Below are positions 1 to 10,078 of a stretch of 10,078 bases of DNA, in pieces (within the stretch, counting starts at the first letter, position 1; every line of letters begins with the position of its first letter). A model generated the notes under the pieces. It was given only the letters and a program-made list of their open reading frames with translations. It was not told the DNA's origin and did no database searches. The stretch is from positions 1-10,078 of the forward strand of contig JAGGVJ010000024.1 in NCBI GenBank assembly GCA_021158055.1. The letters are read 5' to 3'. Origin of the DNA: Candidatus Iainarchaeum sp. (GTDB lineage Archaea > Iainarchaeota > Iainarchaeia > JAGGVJ01). The translations under genes were made by a program, and so were the position numbers.

Positions 1-108
1 CCGTAAGTAATACATCTGAAACCGTAAGTAATACATCTGAAACCGTAAGTAATACATCTGAAACCGTAAGTAATACATCTGAAACCGTAAGTAATACATC
101 TGAAACCG
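1..108. repeat. Perfect 21-bp tandem repeat (CCGTAAGTAATACATCTGAAA) x5 plus CCG, cut by the window edge
   Basis: Identical units start at 1, 22, 43, 64 and 85, with no spacers between them. Confidence 0.97.
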
Positions 109-112
109 CGGA

Positions 113-124
113 TATTATATTATA
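113..124 (+). promoter_or_regulatory. Putative TATA box for a leaderless hemK2-drg transcript
   Basis: TATTATATTATA lies about 24-35 nt upstream of GTG148, and there is no RBS before 148. Confidence 0.45.
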
Positions 125-136
125 CTACACCGCAAC

Positions 137-172
137 ACGTTCAAAGGGTGAAAGACGTTCAAAAGGTGAAAG
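137..172. repeat. 18-bp tandem duplication spanning the hemK2 start codon
   Basis: ACGTTCAAAGGGTGAAAG (137-154) and ACGTTCAAAAGGTGAAAG (155-172) differ at one base and give in-frame GTGs at 148 and 166. Confidence 0.9.
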
Positions 173-819
173 AAATACAGGGAAAACTTCTTGAGATAGA
201 TTATTCCAAATCAGTTTACAGCCCGGCTGAAGACTCGGTTCTTCTTGCAGAAAGCGTCAGCGAAAGCATTGAAGAAAACCACTCGGTTCTCGAGATCGGG
301 TGCGGAACAGGTTTTGTATGCCTGCAGCTTGCCGGCAAGGCAAGGCATGTCACGGCAGTTGACATCAACCCCAACGCTGTTTTGCTTGCAAAGAAAAACG
401 CGAAAAAAAACAACATCAAAAATATTTCCGTGTTTGAATCAGACCTTTTTTCCAGAATCAGCACAGAAAAGAAGTTCAACATAATTGTTTTCAACCCGCC
501 TTACCTGCCAGACGACCACATCGGCTCAAAGGACATGCTTGACAAAGCCCTTATCGGGGGTCCTACCGGCCGGGAAGTATTGTTTTCGTTTTTTAAGGGT
601 GGTGGTGGTGGGAAGAGAGGAGTTAAAGACCACTTAAAGGAAAACGGGAAAGTTTTTTTTGTAATTTCTTCTTTCACAGGACAAAAAGAAGTTGAGGAAA
701 AACTCACAAGACACGGTTTTTGCTCCAGGGTGATCGCGTCAAAAAAACTTTTTTTTGAAACGCTGTTTGTTTACCTCGCAGGTTTTAAGAAGCAGGCCAA
801 AAACGGTGAGAGAAAATGA
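148..819 (+). CDS. hemK2: HemK2/Mtq2-family class I SAM-dependent methyltransferase (putative aRF1 glutamine N5-methyltransferase)
   Basis: VYSPAEDS N-terminal motif, SAM motif VLEIGCGTG, AVDIN, catalytic FNPPYLP, GGPTGR and C-terminal KKLFFETL. The start may be GTG166 instead. Confidence 0.88.
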   Translation: MKDVQKVKEIQGKLLEIDYSKSVYSPAEDSVLLAESVSESIEENHSVLEIGCGTGFVCLQLAGKARHVTAVDINPNAVLLAKKNAKKNNIKNISVFESDLFSRISTEKKFNIIVFNPPYLPDDHIGSKDMLDKALIGGPTGREVLFSFFKGGGGGKRGVKDHLKENGKVFFVISSFTGQKEVEEKLTRHGFCSRVIASKKLFFETLFVYLAGFKKQAKNGERK

Positions 820-1904
820 GCCTTGAGGAAAAAATAACCGAGCTTGAAGACGAAATCAGAAGGACTTCCTACAACAAGGCAACAATGCACCACATCGGAA
901 GACTGAAAGCAAGAATCGCAAGACTAAAAGATAACGCGAGAGCAAAAGCAAGCAAGAAAGGGCCAAAACACGGCTACAGCGTGAAAAAAACCGGGGACGC
1001 CACAGTCGTGATGGTCGGTTTTCCAAGCGTCGGAAAATCCACCCTCTTAAACAAGCTGACCAATGCAAAATCAACTATCGGTGCGTATCACTTCACCACT
1101 TTGACTGTTGTTCCTGGGATGATGATCTACAACCATGCAAAAATACAGCTTCTGGACATCCCCGGACTCATTAAAGGCGCAGCAGTTGGAAAAGGCAGCG
1201 GAAAACAAGTGCTTTCAGTTATCAGGAACTCCGACTTGATACTTATTATAGCTGACCCCAAGGAACCGCAGCAAGTTGAAATACTTAAAAACGAACTTTA
1301 CGAAGGGGGTTTCCGGTTAAACGCGGTGCCGCCTGATGTGATAATCAAAAAGAAAGACAAAGGCGGAGTCAACTTCCTCAGCACTGTCAGTTTGCCTGAG
1401 CTTGACGAAGAAATGGCGCGCGAGGTCTTAAACGAGTACTCAATCCACAACGCTGACGTGCTTGTCAGGGAAAAAATCGGCTTGTCTGAGTTCATTGACG
1501 CCGTGAACGGAAACAGGCATTACGTCCCGATGGTTGTGGTCTTCAACAAAATAGACACGGTTTCTGAAGCAAAACTCAAAAAAGCAGTGGAAACAATAGA
1601 CTGTGATGTGTTGTGCGTTTCGGCGTCTTCTGAAAAAAACCTTGACAAGTTGCGCGAAAGCATTTTCAGACACGTCGGCCTGATAAGGGTTTTCCTGAAA
1701 AAAATCGGCGAAGAGCCGGACCTTTCAGAACCGCTTATCATAAAAAAAGGCACGCGGATTATGGGCGTGTGCAGAACAATTCACAAGCGGTTTGCAGCGG
1801 ACTTTAAATTCGCACGGGTGTGGGGCTCATCAAAATTCGACGGGCAGCGGGTGTCAAAAGGATACGCGGTAAGTGACAAGGACATCGTTGAACTGCATTT
1901 TTAA
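816..1904 (+). CDS. drg: DRG/Rbg1 family OBG-class ribosome-interacting GTPase with C-terminal TGS domain
   Basis: N-terminal NKATMHHIGRLKARIARL, G1 GFPSVGKS, G2 YHFTT, G3 DIPG, G4 NKID, G5 SAS and TGS FKFARVWG. GGTGA RBS at 805-809; ATGA overlap with hemK2. Confidence 0.95.
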   Translation: MSLEEKITELEDEIRRTSYNKATMHHIGRLKARIARLKDNARAKASKKGPKHGYSVKKTGDATVVMVGFPSVGKSTLLNKLTNAKSTIGAYHFTTLTVVPGMMIYNHAKIQLLDIPGLIKGAAVGKGSGKQVLSVIRNSDLILIIADPKEPQQVEILKNELYEGGFRLNAVPPDVIIKKKDKGGVNFLSTVSLPELDEEMAREVLNEYSIHNADVLVREKIGLSEFIDAVNGNRHYVPMVVVFNKIDTVSEAKLKKAVETIDCDVLCVSASSEKNLDKLRESIFRHVGLIRVFLKKIGEEPDLSEPLIIKKGTRIMGVCRTIHKRFAADFKFARVWGSSKFDGQRVSKGYAVSDKDIVELHF

Positions 1905-1914
1905 CTGCTTGAAC

Positions 1915-1951
1915 TTCAGGTTTTTTCCGCGCATTATTTTCAGGTTTTTCC
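1915..1951. repeat. Direct duplication (24-bp period) of the stop-codon region of the convergent gene; the T-tract may also act as the drg terminator
   Basis: TTCAGGTTTTTTCC (1915-1928) versus TTCAGGTTTTTCC (1939-1951). TCA at 1940-1942 is the minus-strand stop. Confidence 0.6.
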
Positions 1952-2950
1952 TTCCACGTTTTCTTCCATTTCCTGAAACTGCTTTTTTATTTTTTCATCT
2001 TCATTTCTTGCCTTTATCGTAAGAATCACAAGAACTGCAATAAGAATCATGGCAACTGCCAGAAGAAAAAAACTGCTGTCTGACTTGACGCTGACAGTGA
2101 ATTCTCTTGAAACTTCGTGGTTTCCGAGTTCGTCGTCAAAAACTGTTTCGACAATCACAGGAAAACTTCCGCTTACCTGAAGGGCTTTGAAACAAAACTT
2201 TTTTTGCATGGCCGAATCAGTCGAGTTCCCGTTAAGCAAAGGGATGACAATTTCTTCACTGTTGCAGCCTGCTTTGATTAAATCCATGTCAAATGCGCTG
2301 CCAAGCTTTATTGTCGTGCTGATGTTCCTTATGTTTTCGTCTGAAATGTTTTTGAAATCAACAGTTATTGCGTTTGAGTCACCGTGCCTAACAGCGTTTC
2401 TTTCAAGAGAGTAACTGATTTGAAGAGGGCTTTTTACTATGCGCACTTCAGAGCCGATAAACTCAGACCTGTTTGAAATCCTTGCGTTTACAAAGTGAAT
2501 GCCTTCCGGAACATCAGAAGGCGTCTGGAAAACCACCTGAATGGTTTTTGCATCATTCGGCCTGAAGTCATAAACATCAATTGTTTTTTTGTCAGCGAGA
2601 AGTCCTTTGTCGTCAAGTATTTTCACATGCTCGCTTCCGGACACTTCAAGCTGAAAGGATTTTGTTTCAAAAGAAAAGTTCTTCAAAGTTATTATTGCAG
2701 TAAATTTTTCCTGCGGGTAAAAAATTGCCTGCCCGAAGTTTTTCGGAACAACTTCAATTATCCCAAACGGAGGCGTTGAAAAATCGGTTTCGGAAACGTC
2801 TTGCGCTTGTGTTTCACTGGCGTTCTGCCCGATTAAAACCGTGCTGTCTTCCGCTGAAAAAGCAGCTGGCAAAACAAAAAATAAAGAGGTCATGAAAACA
2901 AGTGCAGTAAATGCAATAATCTTATTTTTCCCATGGAAACACGTCTTCAT
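1940..2950 (-). CDS. Secreted, C-terminally membrane-anchored beta-rich protein (about 336 aa), probably two Ig-like/CARDB- or COG1361-like domains
   Basis: ATG2950 preceded by GGGGAG; signal peptide ending LPAAFSA; ITLKN and VDFKN Ig-type strands; six N-x-S/T sequons; TM FFLLAVAMILIAVLVILTI then a charged tail. The ORF-track start at 3028 lies well inside the upstream gene. Confidence 0.7.
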   Translation of the reverse strand: MKTCFHGKNKIIAFTALVFMTSLFFVLPAAFSAEDSTVLIGQNASETQAQDVSETDFSTPPFGIIEVVPKNFGQAIFYPQEKFTAIITLKNFSFETKSFQLEVSGSEHVKILDDKGLLADKKTIDVYDFRPNDAKTIQVVFQTPSDVPEGIHFVNARISNRSEFIGSEVRIVKSPLQISYSLERNAVRHGDSNAITVDFKNISDENIRNISTTIKLGSAFDMDLIKAGCNSEEIVIPLLNGNSTDSAMQKKFCFKALQVSGSFPVIVETVFDDELGNHEVSREFTVSVKSDSSFFLLAVAMILIAVLVILTIKARNEDEKIKKQFQEMEENVEGKT

Positions 2951-4226
2951 CTGTTTTCTCCCCGTTGCTTTTTGCTTTTTTTTTATCTGGATGAAAATCA
3001 TGCCCGCCCATTCCAAAAGTGGCTGCAATGTCTTCGCGGTACTTATAACCTATGTAGAGCAGGATTAATAACGCTAATCCAAAAATTACTTCCCACTGAA
3101 AATATGACTGCGCCGGATTTTTTCCGTTATTTTTTATCTGGCTGATTAAATCAGACACCGTGATAAATTTTTTATCTGCTGCCTCAAAGTTCTTGTTTTG
3201 AATATCCTGCGTTAACTCCGACCAGGTGTCAAAAAGGTCATTTACTCCTTTTGCATCTTTATAATCTGAACCGCTGTTCACAATGTCCCTTACTTCGTCT
3301 TCAATTTCACTTACCTTCTCAAGTATGCTTTTTTCAAGATTGTCTCTTTCCGCGACTTCGCTTATACGCTGCACTGAAAGTTCAGAATATTGTGAAGCTT
3401 CTGTTTTTGATATCGAAAATATTTTTTCTGACGCTTCCTGATAATTCACCGCCGCACTATTAAATTGTCTTGATTCCATCAGCAAACTGGTTCCAAGCAC
3501 AATGTTTATGAAATCGCTTTTTTGTTCAGGCAACAATTCACTGCTGAAAATAATTTCGTTTGTCTGGGGGATCATTATGTCATAGTCTTCAATTTTCTCA
3601 GCCAACAGCGATATTTCCTCAAAGGCAAAGGAGTATTCTGCGGAAACAGTTTCTTTTAACTCAAAACCCGGGCTGTTCAAAAACTGCGATTCTGTTTCCG
3701 AAGCATCTGAAATGGCTGATTCGACCAAAAGAGCTTGTTCTTTAATGAACTTCAAAGAACTCAAAAGAGCATTGACGCTTGACTTCACACCCGAATCAAC
3801 ATCTTCACAGGAGACAATAAACTTGAGGCCGTATGTTTTTTTTTCAATGTCGTTTGCAAGCGAATGCATGTTTCCGGCATTTGACTGCGTAAAAAACGCA
3901 TTGTTCTGCCTCAAGTTGGCAATTTCAGAAAACACAAACGCTGTTTCAAGAACATCTGCTATTTTTTTTGAATCTTCCAAGACACTGCCGCTTGATGAAT
4001 CCACAAGAATGTATGAAGAAATTCTCCCGGCTTTTTGAATCTTTCCGACCCAATAGCCTTGCTCTTCAAGCCCGATCGGGGTTGAATTTAAAATCGTGGC
4101 ATCTTCACCGCTATAAAGATAGTTCTTCTGAATAAAATCAGCTGCTTCAACCTGATTTACACTGCTTGCGCCCGCGACCTGAAACAAAAGCAGGACCGAT
4201 ATCAAAAATACGTTTATCTTTGCCAC
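2922..4226 (-). CDS. Secreted, C-terminally anchored acidic helical protein with a PepSY-like N-terminal segment (434 aa)
   Basis: GTG start with GGTGTGAGAG upstream; signal peptide MAKINVFLISVLLLFQVAGA; YWVGKI...ILVDSSSGSVL; long amphipathic helical region; TM VIFGLALLILLYIGY then KYR. Overlaps the next gene by 29 nt. Confidence 0.75.
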   Translation of the reverse strand: MAKINVFLISVLLLFQVAGASSVNQVEAADFIQKNYLYSGEDATILNSTPIGLEEQGYWVGKIQKAGRISSYILVDSSSGSVLEDSKKIADVLETAFVFSEIANLRQNNAFFTQSNAGNMHSLANDIEKKTYGLKFIVSCEDVDSGVKSSVNALLSSLKFIKEQALLVESAISDASETESQFLNSPGFELKETVSAEYSFAFEEISLLAEKIEDYDIMIPQTNEIIFSSELLPEQKSDFINIVLGTSLLMESRQFNSAAVNYQEASEKIFSISKTEASQYSELSVQRISEVAERDNLEKSILEKVSEIEDEVRDIVNSGSDYKDAKGVNDLFDTWSELTQDIQNKNFEAADKKFITVSDLISQIKNNGKNPAQSYFQWEVIFGLALLILLYIGYKYREDIAATFGMGGHDFHPDKKKAKSNGEKTDEDVFPWEK

Positions 4227-4312
4227 GTCAATACACTCTCACACCGATAACATCAATACATTGTACACCAATACTTTATGTTAGATTTGCATTGATACAT
4301 TGCATAAATACA
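4226..4312. repeat. Decayed 25-bp tandem pair plus a 13-bp tandem pair in the divergent intergenic region
   Basis: CGTCAATACACTCTCACACCGATAA / CATCAATACATTGT-ACACCAATAC match at 19 of 25 positions. TTGCATTGATACA (4287-4299) / TTGCATAAATACA (4300-4312). Confidence 0.7.
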
Positions 4313-4333
4313 ATAAGAATAAATCCACAAATC

Positions 4334-4340
4334 TTTATAA
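4334..4340. promoter_or_regulatory. Putative TATA box, possibly bidirectional
   Basis: TTTATAA lies between the divergent starts at 4226 (-) and about 4401 (+). Confidence 0.45.
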
Positions 4341-4400
4341 TTGTTTAGTGAAAAACAACAAACATAAAAAACTATTAAACAAAAACCAAAGGGTGTAGTT

Positions 4401-5114
4401 ATCTTCAAAGTAATTTTAATCGAACCTGAATACCCGCAAAACCTCGGCCTCACTTGCAGGGCAATGAAAAATTTCAGATTGTCGCAACTTGTCCTGGTTA
4501 ACCCGAAAGCAAAACCAAGTGAAAGCTCTGCTATTTCAAGGTCAATGCACGGGCGCGACGTGCTTGAATCCGCAAAAACAGTTGATTGCATTGAAAAAGC
4601 CCTTGAAAACAGTGACCTGAGCGTAGGGTTCACTGCAAAAAGCTTTTTTGAGGACAAAATTCTCCGGACCCCCGTGAACCTGCGCGAGCTCTCGGCAAAA
4701 CTCAAGGGAAAAACAGGTTCTGTGGCGCTTGTCTTTGGAAGGGAGAGCAGCGGGCTTTCAAACAAAGAGCTTAAGCAATGCGACCTGACATGCGTGATTC
4801 CTTCAAACCCTGATTACGCGACACTGAACATTTCCCACGCGTGCGCAATTGTGTTCTTTGAGCTTTTTTCAGGCGGGTTTGGAAAAAAACTGCCTCTTGC
4901 AGACAAAAACACAAAGCAGACAATATTTGATTCTTTTTCAGACCTGGTATCTTCAACAAAATTTGACTTCAAGCGGCCGCAGGTGATGAGCACTGCATTC
5001 AAACGCGTTTTGAACAAAAGCCTGATGACTCAAAGAGAAGCGAACGTTATCGCATCTGTCTTTTCACGGCTTTGTGAAAAAGAAAAACAAAAAAACAAAA
5101 AAAACTCACAGTAA
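4401..5114 (+). CDS. trmJ: TrmJ/LasT family SPOUT tRNA position-32 2'-O-methyltransferase
   Basis: FKVILIEPEYPQNLGLTCRAMKNF, VFGRESSGLSNKEL, LNISHA and a C-terminal helical domain with TQREAN. The conserved N-terminus lies upstream of ATG4464, so the start is placed at ATC4401 behind GGGTG. Confidence 0.88.
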   Translation: MFKVILIEPEYPQNLGLTCRAMKNFRLSQLVLVNPKAKPSESSAISRSMHGRDVLESAKTVDCIEKALENSDLSVGFTAKSFFEDKILRTPVNLRELSAKLKGKTGSVALVFGRESSGLSNKELKQCDLTCVIPSNPDYATLNISHACAIVFFELFSGGFGKKLPLADKNTKQTIFDSFSDLVSSTKFDFKRPQVMSTAFKRVLNKSLMTQREANVIASVFSRLCEKEKQKNKKNSQ

Positions 5115-5142
5115 CTTCGCCTGCTTGCCTGCGCTGTTTTCT

Positions 5143-5224
5143 GCTTCAGTAGCGTTGCTTTTAGCTTCAGTAGCTGAATAGCATTGCTTTCAACTTCAGT
5201 AGTTCAATAGCATTCTTTCAGCTT
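5143..5224. repeat. Decayed 29-bp tandem repeat covering the stop codon of the PH-module gene
   Basis: TAGCGTTGCTTTTAGCTTCAGTAGCTGAA (5150-5178), TAGCATTGCTTTCAACTTCAGTAGTTCAA (5179-5207), partial TAGCATT-CTTTCAGCTT (5208-5224), plus an extra GCTTCAGTAG at 5143. Confidence 0.85.
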
Positions 5225-7618
5225 GTCGTAAAATTCCCTGTAATCCGGAATGTCAACAACCACCAGCTCCGCGGTGCTGCTTCCCGTGGTGTTCACTGAA
5301 ACGTTTCCGTTTCCAAACATTTTGTTCAGCATGCCTTGATTGACATTGAGGTGGTCTATTTTTCTAAACAGGATAGACGTTTGTTTCTTGTACAAAATGC
5401 CTGATTTTTCAACAACCCTGTAGGGCTCAATGGAAAAAGACCTTACCTTTACGCTCCAGACCGCAAGCAAAACCACAACAGGCAAAACCAACAGCAGCGG
5501 AATCAAAAACTGCAAGAAAAGAACAAACAACAGCGTGACAACAACAGCCGGAACGCCCCAAACAACAATGGTGTTTGAAACATCCGGTTTCGCCGTGAGC
5601 ACCTGCGTTGATTCCTCAACGTAAGCCTGAATGTTCCGCTCAATGTCTTTGACTTCCTGCGCATTCGGGTTCCTGTAAAAAATTAGGTCTATCAATTCAT
5701 CTTTACTGCTTACGTCTTCAATGAAATCCACCTTAAAGCTGTTGGATATAACTACCGCGGTCTTCCCCTGCTGGACAACGCGTTCCCCTGCAATGTTAAA
5801 CTGCACAGAGCCGGACTGAGAAAACGGGTATTTCACTGTTGAAATGTCTTTTATGTCGTCGCGCAGGACAAAGTAAACTTCTTCAAAAAATATTCCCCTT
5901 GAACAATAGACATAGTTTTCAAAAAACGAAAGGTTCACCCTGTTTTGATAAACTGACTGGTAAACTGCAAAAATCAAAAACCCGACAATAATGATGACCG
6001 GGACTGCAAGAAACAAGGGCTCAAACAACAACGCTCCCGCAGAAAATGCAAACACGCCCAAAACCAATGCGACTGAAACAAAAAATGCCCCTTTCAACAG
6101 GTCAATCAAAGAAAAGCTCGGGTTCATTTCATAAATCTTTTCCTGTGGTTTTATCCCTGTTTTCGCAATCACTGCCTCGTACAGTCCCTCTGATTTTTTT
6201 ATGTTCCTGAACTGGAGGTCTTCTGCCGAACCGATCGACCAAAAATGAATGCTGCATGTGTTAAACCATTTGTCTATGAAGTTTTCCTTGAATATGACTG
6301 CGGTGATTTTCTCGTTTGCAAATTCAACGTTTTTCGAGTGGATAAAATTGTAACGCTGGGCCATGTTGTTTTCTTTGATGTTGTATTTTGTCGCGCCGAC
6401 TTCAATCACCTTCAATACAACAAGAATAACAATGACAACCAGCAAAGGAGGGAAAATCAGTGCAAACGGCAACAGCACAAGCAACGGTGCAAGTGTCCTT
6501 GCGCTGTCCATTTTGTGCTCTGAAGTATAAGTTGTGTCCCTGTCAAGCGCATGTTTTTGGTATGCTGCCTCTTGCGCGGTGCCGGAAACTTCTTCTCCTG
6601 CGATCCCCTGGGCCTGCGCAGTTTCTGCTGCCTGTGTCTTTGTTCCGACAAGCGAACCGGTTTTGCTTATGAGCTCATCAATGTTTGATTCAAGTTTCGG
6701 GCCGTTTGCCATGTTTTTGAACAGTATTTCCTGGGAACTGCCCTGGCAGCTGATCTTGACATCATACAAGCCGAATATTTTGTCAATCAATGTCTGGGTC
6801 ACAGTGGAATCAGACAGATTTTCTATGGGGATGACCGAGTAGTTTCTTGAAAGGAATCCTTCACTGTAAGTGATCGTGTCTGAATAAACATTATACACCC
6901 TGTTTTTCAGGTCAAGGAAGCGAAATGCAGAAACCAGAATCACTGCCGCCAAAACCAGCAGGGCGCCAAAAAACAACAAAGCAAGATCCACAGGGAGAAT
7001 ATCTGAAAGCGCGCTTGAAAGGCCTTCTGTACCGAAGTCAAAAACAATGTAAATAAAAAACAAGAACGCTCCCGCGATACCGCCGACTGTTTCAAAAAAC
7101 ACACCTATTGTGCTTGGCTTTTCCTGCTGGACCAGCTCTGTTTTTGACAGGCTGAAACCGTTGCTTTTGAGCATGTCCTGAATGTGTTCATAGATTTTTT
7201 CAGGTTTGTTTATGGAAGACATATATATTTCCGAAAGGCCGCTTCCCGCTGATTCAATGGCAATGCTTCCGGTTTTAAACAGTTTTTGTTCAATGAACGG
7301 CAATTTCATGTCAATGTGGGTAACGTTTCTTATGACAAGCTCGGTTTCGCTGTCTGAAATAATGGTTCCTGATTTCCGGATTATTTTGTCTGCAAAAAAA
7401 ATGTATTTTTCCTTGTTGTAGGAAACATTCAGGCAATAATAACAAAATGCTTCCAGCGCAACGAAAACAACTGCCGGATACACGACAGGCAGGTTAAAAA
7501 AAGCATTTGCAATAATGTGAATCACTGCAAAAATCACCAAAAGCAAAATTGAAATCTTGGCAAAGCCATAAGTCACAAACGAGGTCCTGTTAGGTTTAAG
7601 TTCATAAGAGTCAGCCAT
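5204..7618 (-). CDS. YdbS/YdbT-like membrane protein with five repeats of (2 TM + bPH_2 domain), 804 aa
   Basis: Five hydrophobic hairpins, each followed by a Y/F-x-I...G-hh...I..v..Q.hh.K.F..G.v.i..GS pattern (e.g. SGILYKKQTSILFRKIDHLNVNQGMLNKMFGNGNVSVNTTGS). Start placed at ATG7618, 23-30 nt downstream of a TATA box. Confidence 0.85.
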   Translation of the reverse strand: MADSYELKPNRTSFVTYGFAKISILLLVIFAVIHIIANAFFNLPVVYPAVVFVALEAFCYYCLNVSYNKEKYIFFADKIIRKSGTIISDSETELVIRNVTHIDMKLPFIEQKLFKTGSIAIESAGSGLSEIYMSSINKPEKIYEHIQDMLKSNGFSLSKTELVQQEKPSTIGVFFETVGGIAGAFLFFIYIVFDFGTEGLSSALSDILPVDLALLFFGALLVLAAVILVSAFRFLDLKNRVYNVYSDTITYSEGFLSRNYSVIPIENLSDSTVTQTLIDKIFGLYDVKISCQGSSQEILFKNMANGPKLESNIDELISKTGSLVGTKTQAAETAQAQGIAGEEVSGTAQEAAYQKHALDRDTTYTSEHKMDSARTLAPLLVLLPFALIFPPLLVVIVILVVLKVIEVGATKYNIKENNMAQRYNFIHSKNVEFANEKITAVIFKENFIDKWFNTCSIHFWSIGSAEDLQFRNIKKSEGLYEAVIAKTGIKPQEKIYEMNPSFSLIDLLKGAFFVSVALVLGVFAFSAGALLFEPLFLAVPVIIIVGFLIFAVYQSVYQNRVNLSFFENYVYCSRGIFFEEVYFVLRDDIKDISTVKYPFSQSGSVQFNIAGERVVQQGKTAVVISNSFKVDFIEDVSSKDELIDLIFYRNPNAQEVKDIERNIQAYVEESTQVLTAKPDVSNTIVVWGVPAVVVTLLFVLFLQFLIPLLLVLPVVVLLAVWSVKVRSFSIEPYRVVEKSGILYKKQTSILFRKIDHLNVNQGMLNKMFGNGNVSVNTTGSSTAELVVVDIPDYREFYDKLKECY

Positions 7619-7626
7619 GCAATAAG

Positions 7627-7648
7627 AAACAGTAAACTGTTTTAAATA
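7627..7648 (-). promoter_or_regulatory. TATA box (TATTTAAA, 7648-7641) and adjacent inverted repeat AAACAGT-AA-ACTGTTT (7627-7642)
   Basis: Perfect 7-bp arms lie between the TATA box and ATG7618; the spacing fits a leaderless archaeal transcript. Confidence 0.6.
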
Positions 7649-7699
7649 ATTATTCAATGCAATATGACAAAGAAACAAAACAAAGACCAAAGCAAAATA

Positions 7700-7729
7700 T
7701 TTATATATTGAAAAAATAGTCTTTATATA
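7700..7729 (+). promoter_or_regulatory. Two TTTATATA boxes 22 bp apart; putative ttuA-thiI promoter
   Basis: TTTATATA at 7700-7707 and 7722-7729, each preceded by an A-rich BRE-like run. Confidence 0.55.
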
Positions 7730-7803
7730 CCGTTTTGCATTAATTTTTTATTTTTTCAGTTTGTATGATTTTTTTAGTCGGTGTTTTTTCAAACAACTTG
7801 TTT

Positions 7804-7865
7804 TTCAGTTGCATTAATACATTCACATTCAATTGCATTAATACATTCACATTCAGTTGCATTAA
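7804..7865. repeat. 24-bp tandem repeat x2.6 in the ttuA leader
   Basis: TTCAGTTGCATTAATACATTCACA (7804-7827), TTCAATTGCATTAATACATTCACA (7828-7851), TTCAGTTGCATTAA (7852-7865). Confidence 0.93.
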
Positions 7866-7890
7866 ACCCGCAAACAACGGAGAAAATCAA

Positions 7891-8805
7891 ATGTATCAAA
7901 AAACTGATCTGGAATTCAAAGAGTACTTTGAAAAAAAAATAAGGTACACGATCAGAAAATACAAGCTGTGCAGCAAAAAAGACAGGATAGCAGTGGCTGT
8001 GTCAGGCGGAAAGGATTCTACTGCCTGCCTTTATGTCCTCAACAAACTGGGTTTCAATGTTGAAGCAATTACAATAGATGTGCTGATTGGAGACTACACA
8101 AAGCAAAACCTTGAAAACCTCAAAAAGTTCTGCGCTGAAAACGACATAAAACTCAACACAGTGTCTTTTCAGGAAGAGTTCGGCAGACCACTTCGCTCTA
8201 TCCGCTCGGTTGTGAACTCAAAAGGTCATGATTATTCATCGTGCCGGATTTGCGGAATACTTAAAAGATACCTGCTGAACAAGTATTCAAAAGAACTGGG
8301 TTTTGACTTTCTTGCAACCGGCCACAACATGGACGACGAGGCACAGACGTTTCTGATGAACGTCTTCAAAAACGACCTGGTGCTTGCAAAAAGACAGGGC
8401 CCGGTTTCAGCAGGCAACGAAAGCAGGATATTTGTAAAAAGAATAAAGCCGTTGTACCTTTTGTCAGAAAAAGAAACTGAAATGTACTCGAAACTCATGA
8501 ACTTCCCTGTAAACTACGGCATCTGCCCTTGTTCTTCAAACGCTTTCAGGCGAAACTTCATCAACATTTTAAACAAGTTTGAGGAAAAGCACCCGAGCGT
8601 AAAAAGCAACATCGTGAACTTTCAGGAAAAACTTGCACAGGAAATAAAAAACCAAAACAACAATGCAAAAATCACAGCCTGCACACTTTGCGGGGAGCCT
8701 TCAAGCAACAGCGTCTGCAGAACCTGCCAGATACTCACTGCATTAAAAGAGGATGAACATGACAAACAAACAAAAAAGCAAGCCGGATACTGTGACAGTG
8801 CATAA
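7891..8805 (+). CDS. ttuA: TtuA/NcsA/Ncs6 (TIGR00269-like) PP-loop tRNA 2-thiouridine synthetase
   Basis: PP-loop SGGKDS, CRICG, GHNMDDEAQT, RIKPL, CPC and C-terminal zinc finger CTLC...CRTC. GGAG RBS at 7879-7882. Target position (U34 or U54) cannot be resolved from sequence. Confidence 0.85.
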   Translation: MYQKTDLEFKEYFEKKIRYTIRKYKLCSKKDRIAVAVSGGKDSTACLYVLNKLGFNVEAITIDVLIGDYTKQNLENLKKFCAENDIKLNTVSFQEEFGRPLRSIRSVVNSKGHDYSSCRICGILKRYLLNKYSKELGFDFLATGHNMDDEAQTFLMNVFKNDLVLAKRQGPVSAGNESRIFVKRIKPLYLLSEKETEMYSKLMNFPVNYGICPCSSNAFRRNFINILNKFEEKHPSVKSNIVNFQEKLAQEIKNQNNNAKITACTLCGEPSSNSVCRTCQILTALKEDEHDKQTKKQAGYCDSA

Positions 8806-10078
8806 TGACAAACCGGACACAGTGATAGTGCATTACGACAAACCGGACACAGTGATAGTGCATTACGACGAGATAGGGCTCAAAGGAGCAAACAGACCTT
8901 ACTTTGAAAAGCTTTTGATGAAAAACATTGAAAGAAAACTAAGCAGCATTTCAGGGCACCCGGGCAAAGACAAAGGCAGCACGGTTGCCAGGAAACACAT
9001 CCGGGTTGCCGGGAAACACATCCGGGTTGCCGGAAAACACATCCAAATCGCCAGGGAACACGGCCAAATCGCCTTAAGCATCGGCGCGGGCGACAATCTC
9101 TTGGAAATAGCGGATGCTCTTTCAAAAATTCCTGGAATCGCGTTTTTTTCGTTTACAAAAAAAACAGGCCTTGACATCAAGTCAATCAAAGAAAGCTCTG
9201 TTGAATTCCTCAGGAAAGCAAAGTTTGAGTCGTTCAAGGTAAACTCAAAAAGGCACAACAAAAACGTGCCTTTCACTTCAATGGAGCTAAACGCATTGAT
9301 CGGCGAGGTGCTGATTGACGCATTCGGCAAAAAAGTGAAAATGAAGGGAGCTGACCTTGTCTTGAAAATCGAGGTTTCAAACAAGTTCTCTTACCTGTCC
9401 TGCAAAGACATTACAGGGGTGGGGGGACTCCCGACAGACAGCAGGCAAAAAGTGGTTTCGCTTATGTCAGGCGGGTTTGACAGTCCCGTCGCGTCTTACC
9501 TAATGATGAAAAGAGGCTGCGAAGTCATCCTTGTGCATTTCCAAAACCAGAACCTGTTGTCTGAATCTGTCGAGAATAAGATTGTCCGGCTTGCAAAACA
9601 CCTTTCAAAATACCAGGTAAAAACAAAGCTTTTCATCGTGCCTTTCGGGGAGATCCAAAACGAGATAATCTCAAAAGTCCACTCCGGTGTTAGGATGCTT
9701 GTCTACAGAAAGTTCATGATTGAAATTTCATCAACTATTGCAGACAAGGAAAAAGCAGGGTTTTTGGTTGTGGGGGACAGCTTGTCGCAAGTTGCGTCGC
9801 AAACCTTTGAAAACCTAAACGCTGTCTATTCCGGCTCAGAAAAGCACATCTTTTCCCCTTTGATCGGGCTGAATAAGCAGGAAATCATAGATATTGCAAA
9901 GGAGATCGGAACATATGACATCTCGGCGCTTCCTTACGGCGACTGCTGCAGTTACTTTGTTCCAAAGCACCCTGAACTCCGGGCAGGCAAGGAAACCCTT
10001 GAAAAATGCAAGGAAGCCATTGAATCTAAAAAATTAGTCGAAAGCGCAGTGAAAAACGCCAGGGTTTTTGTGTTTTAA
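8759..10078 (+). CDS. thiI: tRNA 4-thiouridine synthetase ThiI/TtuI (NFLD-THUMP-PP-loop, no rhodanese domain)
   Basis: VHYDEIGLKGANRPYFE, THUMP SFKVNSKR...FTSMELN, SGGFDSPVA, GDSLSQVASQT, PLIG and DCC. GAGG at 8749-8752 favours ATG8759 over ATG8753; overlaps the ttuA 3' end. Confidence 0.94.
   Translation: MTNKQKSKPDTVTVHNDKPDTVIVHYDKPDTVIVHYDEIGLKGANRPYFEKLLMKNIERKLSSISGHPGKDKGSTVARKHIRVAGKHIRVAGKHIQIAREHGQIALSIGAGDNLLEIADALSKIPGIAFFSFTKKTGLDIKSIKESSVEFLRKAKFESFKVNSKRHNKNVPFTSMELNALIGEVLIDAFGKKVKMKGADLVLKIEVSNKFSYLSCKDITGVGGLPTDSRQKVVSLMSGGFDSPVASYLMMKRGCEVILVHFQNQNLLSESVENKIVRLAKHLSKYQVKTKLFIVPFGEIQNEIISKVHSGVRMLVYRKFMIEISSTIADKEKAGFLVVGDSLSQVASQTFENLNAVYSGSEKHIFSPLIGLNKQEIIDIAKEIGTYDISALPYGDCCSYFVPKHPELRAGKETLEKCKEAIESKKLVESAVKNARVFVF
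8780..8869 (+). repeat. 30-bp coding tandem repeat x3 (KPDTVTVHND, KPDTVIVHYD, KPDTVIVHYD)
   Basis: Copies 8810-8839 and 8840-8869 are identical; copy 8780-8809 differs at 6 bases. Confidence 0.96.
8984..9073 (+). repeat. 21-bp coding tandem repeat x4.3 (VARKHIR VAGKHIR VAGKHIQ IAREHGQ IA)
   Basis: Units start at 8984, 9005, 9026, 9047 and 9068, with neighbouring units most similar. Confidence 0.93.

Follow-up and report, generated by a model that had tools for sequence, protein, structure and literature searches.

Pervasive perfect tandem repeats have been put forward as a hallmark of Borgs and giant viruses that is all but missing from the chromosome of the Borg host, Methanoperedens. Borgs, which are linear extrachromosomal elements, are reported to carry 5.1 ± 1.8 perfect repeat regions (at least 3 units and at least 50 nt) per 100 kb, with a range of 3.2-9.2, covering 0.29-1.02% of the genome, and the same reports give 0.05 such regions per 100 kb for the complete chromosome of Methanoperedens (PMC9879509; PMC12660748). 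In cellular archaea, satellites (tandem arrays with a unit of 10-260 nt in four copies or more) have been counted per Mb: Methanosarcina genomes have 7-89 and Methanobrevibacter genomes 26-28, and a genome with more than 4 is regarded as satellite-rich (PMC6749651). Microhomology-mediated tandem duplication (MTD) has been described in bacteria, archaea and fungi as a largely neutral process that is under the control of Rad27/Fen1 and whose products are removed from coding DNA (PMC13167724), and the PolB and PolD of Pyrococcus abyssi are reported to undergo replication slippage in vitro on a hairpin-bearing template (PMC4134008). Here we describe the short tandem arrays found in a 10,078-base stretch of Candidatus Iainarchaeum sp. 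(contig JAGGVJ010000024.1; hereafter, the window) and in the rest of its draft genome. The window is the whole of contig C10 of a 1,147,527-base assembly in 45 contigs (94.9% complete, estimated contamination of 0.05%, ~42% GC), and the host appears to be a small cellular DPANN archaeon resembling Woesearchaeota. Its chromosome carries an excess of tandem arrays that are built from locus-unique units, are flanked by microhomology, are depleted from gene interiors, keep the reading frame where they fall within genes and have introduced lineage-specific insertions into conserved proteins. An initial annotation of the window had proposed a lineage-specific local duplication process filtered by selection; the feature is real and this interpretation is correct in outline.

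A survey with Tandem Repeats Finder (TRF; period of at least 7, score of at least 50) detected 300 arrays in the genome (2.6 per 10 kb), compared with 17, 18, 17, 14 and 12 in five Markov-3 shuffles of the same genome. The arrays occupy 1.54% of the genome, are present on 42 of the 45 contigs and touch 176 of the 1,111 open reading frames (ORFs), so that the pattern read from the window holds at the genome scale. Perfect tandem duplications with a period of 12-40 nt numbered 98 in the genome and 0 in one shuffle. We also compared the genome with 30 relatives, all of which are related only at the level of the class and have genomes of 0.5-1.3 Mb; the strict counts cover 29 of the 30. Perfect duplications with a period of 13-40 nt numbered 88 in our genome (~77 per Mb) vs 3 in 800 kb from nine relatives and 2 in 332 kb from twenty more, a rate ratio of ~17 over the 29 relatives, and only 3 were found in 769 kb of 80 ThiI-bearing metagenome contigs. 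Likewise, arrays with at least 90% match and at least 2.5 copies numbered 68 here vs 4 in the 800 kb of the nine relatives, and perfect arrays of at least 3 units and at least 50 nt numbered 31 vs 1 in the same 800 kb. Thus, high-identity arrays exceed the level of relatives and shuffles alike, as the initial annotation had anticipated.

The periods of the arrays are narrowly distributed, with 73% falling within 15-24 nt and a median of 21 nt; among perfect duplications, periods of 17-24 nt are both the commonest and the most expanded. When the units of 151 arrays were compared with each other, matches were limited to six pairs, all located at contig ends, and these pairs represent the same physical arrays split between contigs. 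Apart from them, no unit recurs, in agreement with the earlier view that most units are mutually unrelated. There was likewise no unit recurring at many loci, as would be the case for a mobile minisatellite family of the type known from Leptospira and Methanocella conradii, and the arrays of the window consist of head-to-tail copies with no spacers, unlike a CRISPR array, in which unique stretches of similar length separate the repeats. A search of 133 units for a shared seed motif found only AT-rich 6-mers to be mildly enriched (AATAAT in 23 of 133 units vs 7.9 expected), the most widely shared 6-mer being present in no more than about a sixth of the units. AATACA, suspected as a seed motif from several arrays in the window, was not among the enriched 6-mers.

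Of 58 perfect two-copy duplications, only 9 had no partial third copy (chance expectation 55%, p = 7e-10), and in 33 the partial copy exceeded 3 nt (chance expectation 1.7%). A partial extra unit thus accompanies 49 of the 58 two-copy arrays, and it also accompanies 16 of the 17 internal arrays with at least 3 copies. Because partial third copies are so common, the ancestral state was usually x-Y-x, that is, a segment between two short direct repeats spaced by one period. The genome has both perfect and decayed copies, as had been noted for the window and as seen in the histogram of match values. At the other extreme, perfect arrays of 41-126 nt interrupt the assembly at 13 of the 90 contig ends, and the internal perfect arrays do not exceed 118 nt, a ceiling that probably corresponds to the k-mer limit of a short-read assembler (~127). 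Since contigs break inside arrays in this way, short-read genomes of this kind under-report them.

The arrays are far from randomly placed. Intergenic regions contain 108 arrays vs 23.1 ± 4.6 expected by random placement (4.7x), and gene ends are enriched 2.7x overall, with 31 arrays spanning starts (12.2 expected) and 34 spanning stops (12.0 expected). Conversely, 125 arrays (~42%) lie inside ORFs, where 248.9 ± 6.3 were expected, and arrays make up 0.95% of coding vs 6.43% of intergenic DNA. The proposed bias toward periods that are multiples of three (3n) is pronounced within ORFs, where 94 of 125 arrays have such periods (binomial p = 1e-21). Intergenic arrays do not show it, their 35 of 108 being the chance share (ORF vs intergenic, Fisher p = 5e-11). 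Most of the 31 non-3n arrays assigned to ORF interiors fall in over-extended ORF 5' ends or in short dubious ORFs, or have low scores. The in-frame arrays gather near protein termini; K, E and P are enriched in the sequences that they encode, whereas W, R, I, M and L are depleted; the A content of coding arrays is 37.6% vs 32.0% in all genes.

By the criterion used for Borgs, the genome contains 2.7 perfect regions per 100 kb (~2.3 if the contig-end pairs are merged), covering 0.25% of an uncurated draft in which arrays longer than ~126 nt are broken; this is about half of the density reported for Borgs and just below their range (PMC9879509; PMC12660748). A load of comparable order is found here in a 1.15 Mb cellular genome. 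The likeness to Borgs drawn in the initial annotation is borne out by the perfect arrays of ~20-25 nt units, the locus-unique units and the flanking partial repeats (PMC9879509), by the genic share (~42% of the arrays are in ORFs here vs 44% reported for Borgs), by 3n periods in ORFs with an intergenic 3n share of 32% (14-38% in the Borg reports), by coding-repeat residues that lean toward disorder promotion and by arrays that break short-read assemblies. It fails in the setting, here the chromosome of a cell, with genes for ribosomal proteins and RNA polymerase, rather than a linear extrachromosomal element, and in base composition: Borg units are described as 48% A, whereas our intergenic arrays, read on the gene strand, contain 38.3% A and 37.6% T, with no A-over-T asymmetry. 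Also unlike Borgs, many decayed arrays are found alongside the perfect ones. Giant viruses (Nucleocytoviricota) are similar in their reported 2.9 ± 2.2 regions per 100 kb, ~25 nt units, ~4.5 copies and 3n periods in genes; however, these are viral genomes, and their intergenic 3n share is given as 53% vs 32% here (PMC12660748).

Closer in setting are Methanosarcina, Methanobrevibacter and Methanococcus voltae, whose cellular chromosomes are described as carrying tens of arrays with units shorter than 30 nt per Mb (PMC6749651). Under a satellite-like rule (TRF, at least 4 copies, unit of at least 10 nt), our genome has 37 arrays, or 32 per Mb, a value that lies within the published Methanosarcina range and is only roughly comparable with the published ones because these were obtained with SATFIND rather than TRF. 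The arrays of the satellite-rich methanogens are also reported to be mostly unique sequences, with 3n periods in genes (PMC6749651); by contrast, those organisms are free-living, with genomes of 2-5.7 Mb, whereas the genome studied here is reduced to 1.15 Mb and its sampled class-level relatives do not have the trait. Furthermore, the arrays here extend into core translation and transcription proteins. Given that repeat-rich chromosomes of Methanosarcina and Methanobrevibacter are on record (PMC6749651), the present case is less exceptional than the initial annotation supposed. A full-text literature search found no prior report of such a repeat load in DPANN archaea.

The arrays also agree with MTD. 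Duplications without a microhomology arm constitute 16% here vs 25-30% of the young intraspecies duplications reported, and those with more than 3 bp of microhomology constitute 57% vs ~50% in the published account, which also describes depletion from coding DNA and further expansion of microhomology-bearing arrays, as in our genome (PMC13167724). The differences are that MTD is presented there as a universal low-level process, whereas unusually many duplications are fixed here (~77 perfect ones per Mb), and that, although its formation is tied there to flap processing by Rad27/Fen1 (PMC13167724), the Fen1 encoded here appears intact as judged from its sequence.

The lengthening of conserved proteins is apparent in ThiI, the tRNA 4-thiouridine synthase encoded at the end of the window. 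It has 439 amino acids (aa) vs 380-397 aa in the best homologues; among the non-self homologues, the best (at most 57% identity) carry the source label Woesearchaeota or Nanoarchaeota, which suggests a DPANN archaeon resembling Woesearchaeota. Two arrays account for insertions that are absent from all 11 nearest homologues: the first is an N-terminal extension of ~20 residues, and the second adds 29 residues immediately ahead of the conserved RExGQI strand. In an AlphaFold2 model, the ThiI fold is kept, and the predicted local distance difference test (pLDDT) score falls below 50 at residues 1-24 and 67-92. Low pLDDT in the inserts is expected from the method where columns have no homologues. 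Among 20 repeat-bearing ORFs scanned, 16 belong to known families, including Rpo7, S6e, S11, EF-1alpha, RadA, SecD/F, ScpB and AglB. The open frames of S6e (241 aa; others 118-217 aa), S11 (237 aa; others 127-175 aa) and Rpo7 (365 aa; others 96-232 aa) are the longest among the 30-31 genomes searched. The earlier observation that core genes of a cellular chromosome are affected therefore extends from ThiI to S6e, S11, Rpo7, EF-1alpha and RadA.

Within this set, Rpo7 and S6e lie close together on one contig (C20:11528-15116; loci L061 and L065), and both proteins have long K/E/P-rich C-terminal extensions made of 24-96 nt repeats, their length being approximately doubled relative to 29-30 relatives. 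RadA (C25:1822-2928; L068) contains a near-perfect, in-frame 24-nt array of 2.5 copies at its N-terminus, encoding TEEEPKME-type units.

The window itself is among the most array-rich parts of the genome: with 6 arrays at a score of at least 50, it falls in the top 4.8% of the genome's 166 ten-kb windows. Nine arrays had originally been claimed for it, six of which were confirmed by TRF at or near the positions given, whereas the remaining three (1915-1951, 4226-4286 and 4287-4312) are weak. The first array (1-108) is a perfect (100% match) 21-nt repeat of 5.14 copies identified by TRF and truncated where the contig begins. This non-coding array occupies the divergent intergenic region upstream of a methyltransferase gene. 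Its unit also terminates contig C19, with 6.0 copies (126 nt), and there the array starts right behind a stop codon, beside a divergent gene. Thus, contigs C10 and C19 are joined via one array longer than the assembler could span. It is followed by an 18-nt duplication of 2.1 copies on the plus strand (137-173; 94% match by TRF, and register layout), in which a Shine-Dalgarno-like motif (GGTGA) is repeated together with the region of the methyltransferase gene's GTG start. As for the weak cases, the claimed 24-nt array at 1915-1951 was not reported by TRF at a score of at least 30, and its vicinity has only a 15-nt two-copy match at 80%, of a kind that often arises by chance. Similarly, the 25-nt and 13-nt arrays claimed in the divergent intergenic region at 4226-4312 are reduced to a TRF match at 4287-4312 with a score of 38; the 25-nt array at 4226-4286 went unreported at a score of at least 30 and consists of two-copy matches of 11-13 nt.

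The other four confirmed arrays are associated with the distal genes of the window. In the convergent intergenic region at 5146-5224, a 29-nt array of 2.8 copies (82% match; minus strand; TRF, register layout and C-terminal translation) has a gene-proximal copy in which the minus-strand bPH_2 gene ends, with its final codons and stop. A 24-nt array of 2.6 copies (7804-7865; 94% match by TRF; plus strand) lies upstream of a TtuA-like gene and is in frame with the ATG at 7765. Homology to TtuA starts 5 residues past the ATG at 7891, which is residue 48 when counted from the ATG at 7765, so the array is either part of a leader or promoter region or an in-frame N-terminal extension translated from 7765. 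Solved TtuA chains have an N-terminal segment of ~22 residues, which is absent here unless translation starts at 7765; with that start, the 24-nt array would encode a Cys-containing N-terminus of FSCINTFT-type units. The 30-nt array at the ThiI N-terminus (8779-8869; 3.0 copies, 90% match; plus strand; TRF, register layout and translations) encodes DKPDTVIVHY-type units; the TAA that ends the TtuA-like gene falls in the first copy, which is diverged. Finally, the 21-nt array of 3-4 copies (8983-9073; 95% and 83% match by TRF; plus strand) in the ferredoxin-like N-terminal domain of ThiI comprises three near-identical young copies located upstream of the native copy that encodes the conserved RExGQI strand; AATCGCC recurs at a spacing of 21 nt at the native end. 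Register layouts and homologue alignment thus substantiate the earlier proposal that units copy their own neighbourhood, here a start region, two stop codons and a ThiI strand.

We consider it likely that two processes, microhomology-mediated tandem duplication and subsequent expansion by slippage, generate these arrays at an elevated rate in this lineage, and that selection then filters the result. Under this model, local segments, mostly of 15-24 nt, would duplicate in tandem between short direct repeats, possibly through strand misalignment during replication or during maturation of Okazaki fragments. Once two copies are present, out-of-register realignment would add further units, so that perfect arrays grow from 3 to more than 6 copies. 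No sequence specificity would be involved: an array copies the sequence present at the site, which may be a start region, stop codon, leader or beta-strand. Nearly all frame-breaking arrays in coding DNA, and about two thirds of the in-frame ones, would be lost to purifying selection; because of this filter, the survivors would lie mainly in intergenic regions, over gene boundaries and, with 3n units, near protein termini or in loops, where they form disordered tails and inserts. The raised level of arrays may reflect a raised rate of formation rather than slower collapse or weaker selection, and the perfect copies and contig-breaking arrays suggest that the process is still running. With respect to the two routes considered in the initial annotation, namely, slippage and break repair with fill-in, the microhomology flanks favour slippage or microhomology-mediated duplication and speak against blunt fill-in. 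Both polymerase families known from Pyrococcus abyssi to slip on repeated templates (PMC4134008) are encoded here.

The genome encodes Fen1, PolB, PolD, NucS and RNase HII, together with NurA and three proteins of the DHH family, and loss of one of these maintenance genes as the cause was accordingly rejected. In the inventory suggested with the initial annotation, PolB, PolD, NucS and Fen1 are thus accounted for, whereas MutS and reverse transcriptase (PF00078), as well as a Y-family polymerase, were not found in this genome at 94.9% completeness; the same PF00078 search gave matches in control genomes, and the result speaks against diversification driven by a DGR-like retroelement.

Several observations weigh against this explanation. 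No enzymatic cause of the raised level was found in the searches for maintenance genes, which did not scan the whole proteome, and the counts of DHH, NurA and NucS do not set the genome apart from 30 relatives; repeat-poor relatives have no more of the maintenance genes than this genome. Fen1, to which MTD formation has been tied, is encoded by a 342-aa open frame that looks intact in sequence. Its catalytic acidic motifs and C-terminal PIP-like motif agree with what we take to be the canonical consensus. The units fold less well than matched controls (-0.056 vs -0.080 kcal/mol/nt, p = 1e-4, with RNA parameters), and slippage promoted by hairpins, which was considered as a route, is therefore unsupported; in this respect, the genome is unlike the hairpin-bearing template on which the Pyrococcus abyssi polymerases are reported to slip (PMC4134008). 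The ORFs on which the placement statistics depend were called by a crude, untrained longest-ORF script (1,111 ORFs over 89% of the genome). Lastly, under the lenient TRF threshold (score of at least 50), two AT-rich relatives, G012 and G024, contain 37-38 arrays per 100 kb vs 26 here.

This last point bears on the possibility that the arrays are simply the low-complexity and coding-repeat background that is ordinary in small AT-leaning archaeal genomes. However, G012 and G024 have a GC content of 24-28%, their own shuffles yield 7-14 arrays per 100 kb, so that they exceed shuffles by only 3-4x, their arrays have a mean match of ~81%, and they include zero perfect arrays of at least 3 units. 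The genome studied here, at 42% GC, has ~1.4 arrays per 100 kb in its shuffles, and its perfect duplications are ~17x denser than in the 29 relatives, which makes a background origin very improbable. We regard as equally remote an artefact of metagenome assembly or binning, whether through chimeric joins, strain mixtures or a foreign repeat-rich element. The draft is indeed uncurated, in 45 contigs, and 13 of its contig ends lie in repeats, but the arrays are spread over 42 of these contigs and sit inside genes for ribosomal proteins, EF-1alpha and RNA polymerase, and the estimated contamination is 0.05%. Moreover, assemblers do not create tandem repeats but collapse them or break at them, and assembly errors would produce neither in-frame periods nor a depletion in coding DNA. 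In addition, two hydrothermal-vent metagenome runs, which may be the source samples, each contain 98-99% of the sampled words of the window.

Two biological alternatives deserve more weight, although both appear unlikely. One holds that the arrays are kept mainly for use, by positive selection and not through a raised mutation rate, as disordered tails of the kind proposed for the amino-acid repeats of Borgs, as multiplied promoter, leader or terminator elements or as repeat RNAs. The K/E/P enrichment and W/R/I/M/L depletion of coding arrays would fit such a role, yet purifying selection alone would also leave this bias; similarly, both ThiI arrays are modelled as disordered (pLDDT below 50), but low values are expected in columns with no homologues. 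The long repeat-built extensions of core proteins, the position of several window arrays on start, leader or stop regions and the somewhat higher density in divergent (39 arrays in 36.8 kb) than in convergent (13 in 20.1 kb) intergenic regions also point in this direction. Against it, no motif is common to the units, which leaves nothing for a shared factor to recognise, arrays are found in 5' as well as 3' intergenic regions, and the intergenic 3n share is exactly that of chance (35 of 108). The other alternative, which we consider similarly improbable, replaces replication with break repair: staggered nicks or double-strand breaks with overhangs of 15-24 nt would be filled in and rejoined, or would be processed by microhomology-mediated end joining with templated synthesis. 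Microhomology flanks are compatible with such end joining too, the mode at 17-24 nt could mean a fixed stagger, and MutS and Y-family polymerase were not found in the genome. But blunt fill-in predicts no microhomology, and only 9 of the 58 duplications are without it; growth to at least 5 perfect copies is left unexplained by break repair alone; no genome-specific nuclease was identified, in a proteome that was not scanned whole; and NurA and RadA, the latter with only an N-terminal repeat insert, show that genes for homologous repair are present.

Microhomology-mediated duplication with slippage expansion thus being our preferred explanation, a stronger version of it can be put forward tentatively, although we think it rather doubtful. 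In this version, the organism would be undergoing runaway minisatellite formation on its own chromosome, caused by a change in replication or repair that is invisible in gene content, and would be actively building disordered tails and inserts on essential proteins such as S6e, S11, Rpo7, EF-1alpha, RadA and ThiI. If true, Borg-type repeat formation would be a property of an archaeal cellular state and not of the elements, and the organism would provide a natural system for finding the responsible factor. Irrespective of this, the contrast within one class between this genome and ~29 relatives that do not show the trait gives a handle on the factors that determine how often microhomology-mediated duplications form in archaea, and the extended proteins show the speed at which conserved proteins can gain new termini and loops.

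On the plus strand of the window, a small-domain (MTS/HemK-like) methyltransferase gene (148-819; Pfam PF05175, E = 1.3e-20) is followed by an array-free gene for a DRG-type GTPase with MMR_HSR1 and TGS domains (816-1904; PF16897, PF01926 and PF02824). The methyltransferase gene includes a run of glycines encoded by GGT codons (599-613), a trinucleotide repeat under the period cut-off of the survey. Two overlapping minus-strand genes from the ORF list, at 1940-3028 and 2922-4226 (362 and 434 aa), gave only Pfam matches below threshold. They are followed by a plus-strand gene for a SpoU-family RNA methyltransferase (4464-5114; PF00588, E = 3.6e-19) and by the minus-strand gene for a membrane protein with four bPH_2 domains (5204-7690; PF03703 in 4 stretches, E = 1.2e-42). 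The last two genes, both on the plus strand, encode a PP-loop tRNA 2-thiolation enzyme of the TtuA/NcsA family (7891-8805, alternative start 7765; TtuA structures 3vrh/5mko in the PDB, E = 1e-51; PF01171) and ThiI (8759-10078; PF02568, E = 3.6e-69). Searches of the window for Rfam families and tRNAs found none.

Two further observations concern the surroundings of the window. Two cold-seep metagenome runs from other studies contain 7-14% of the sampled words of the window, which could point to a related strain or species at other sites. The last 41 residues of ThiI (9953-10078) are encoded identically at the end of contig C2 (17896-18018, minus strand); because the two contigs share this sequence, they overlap end to end and are neighbours on the chromosome.

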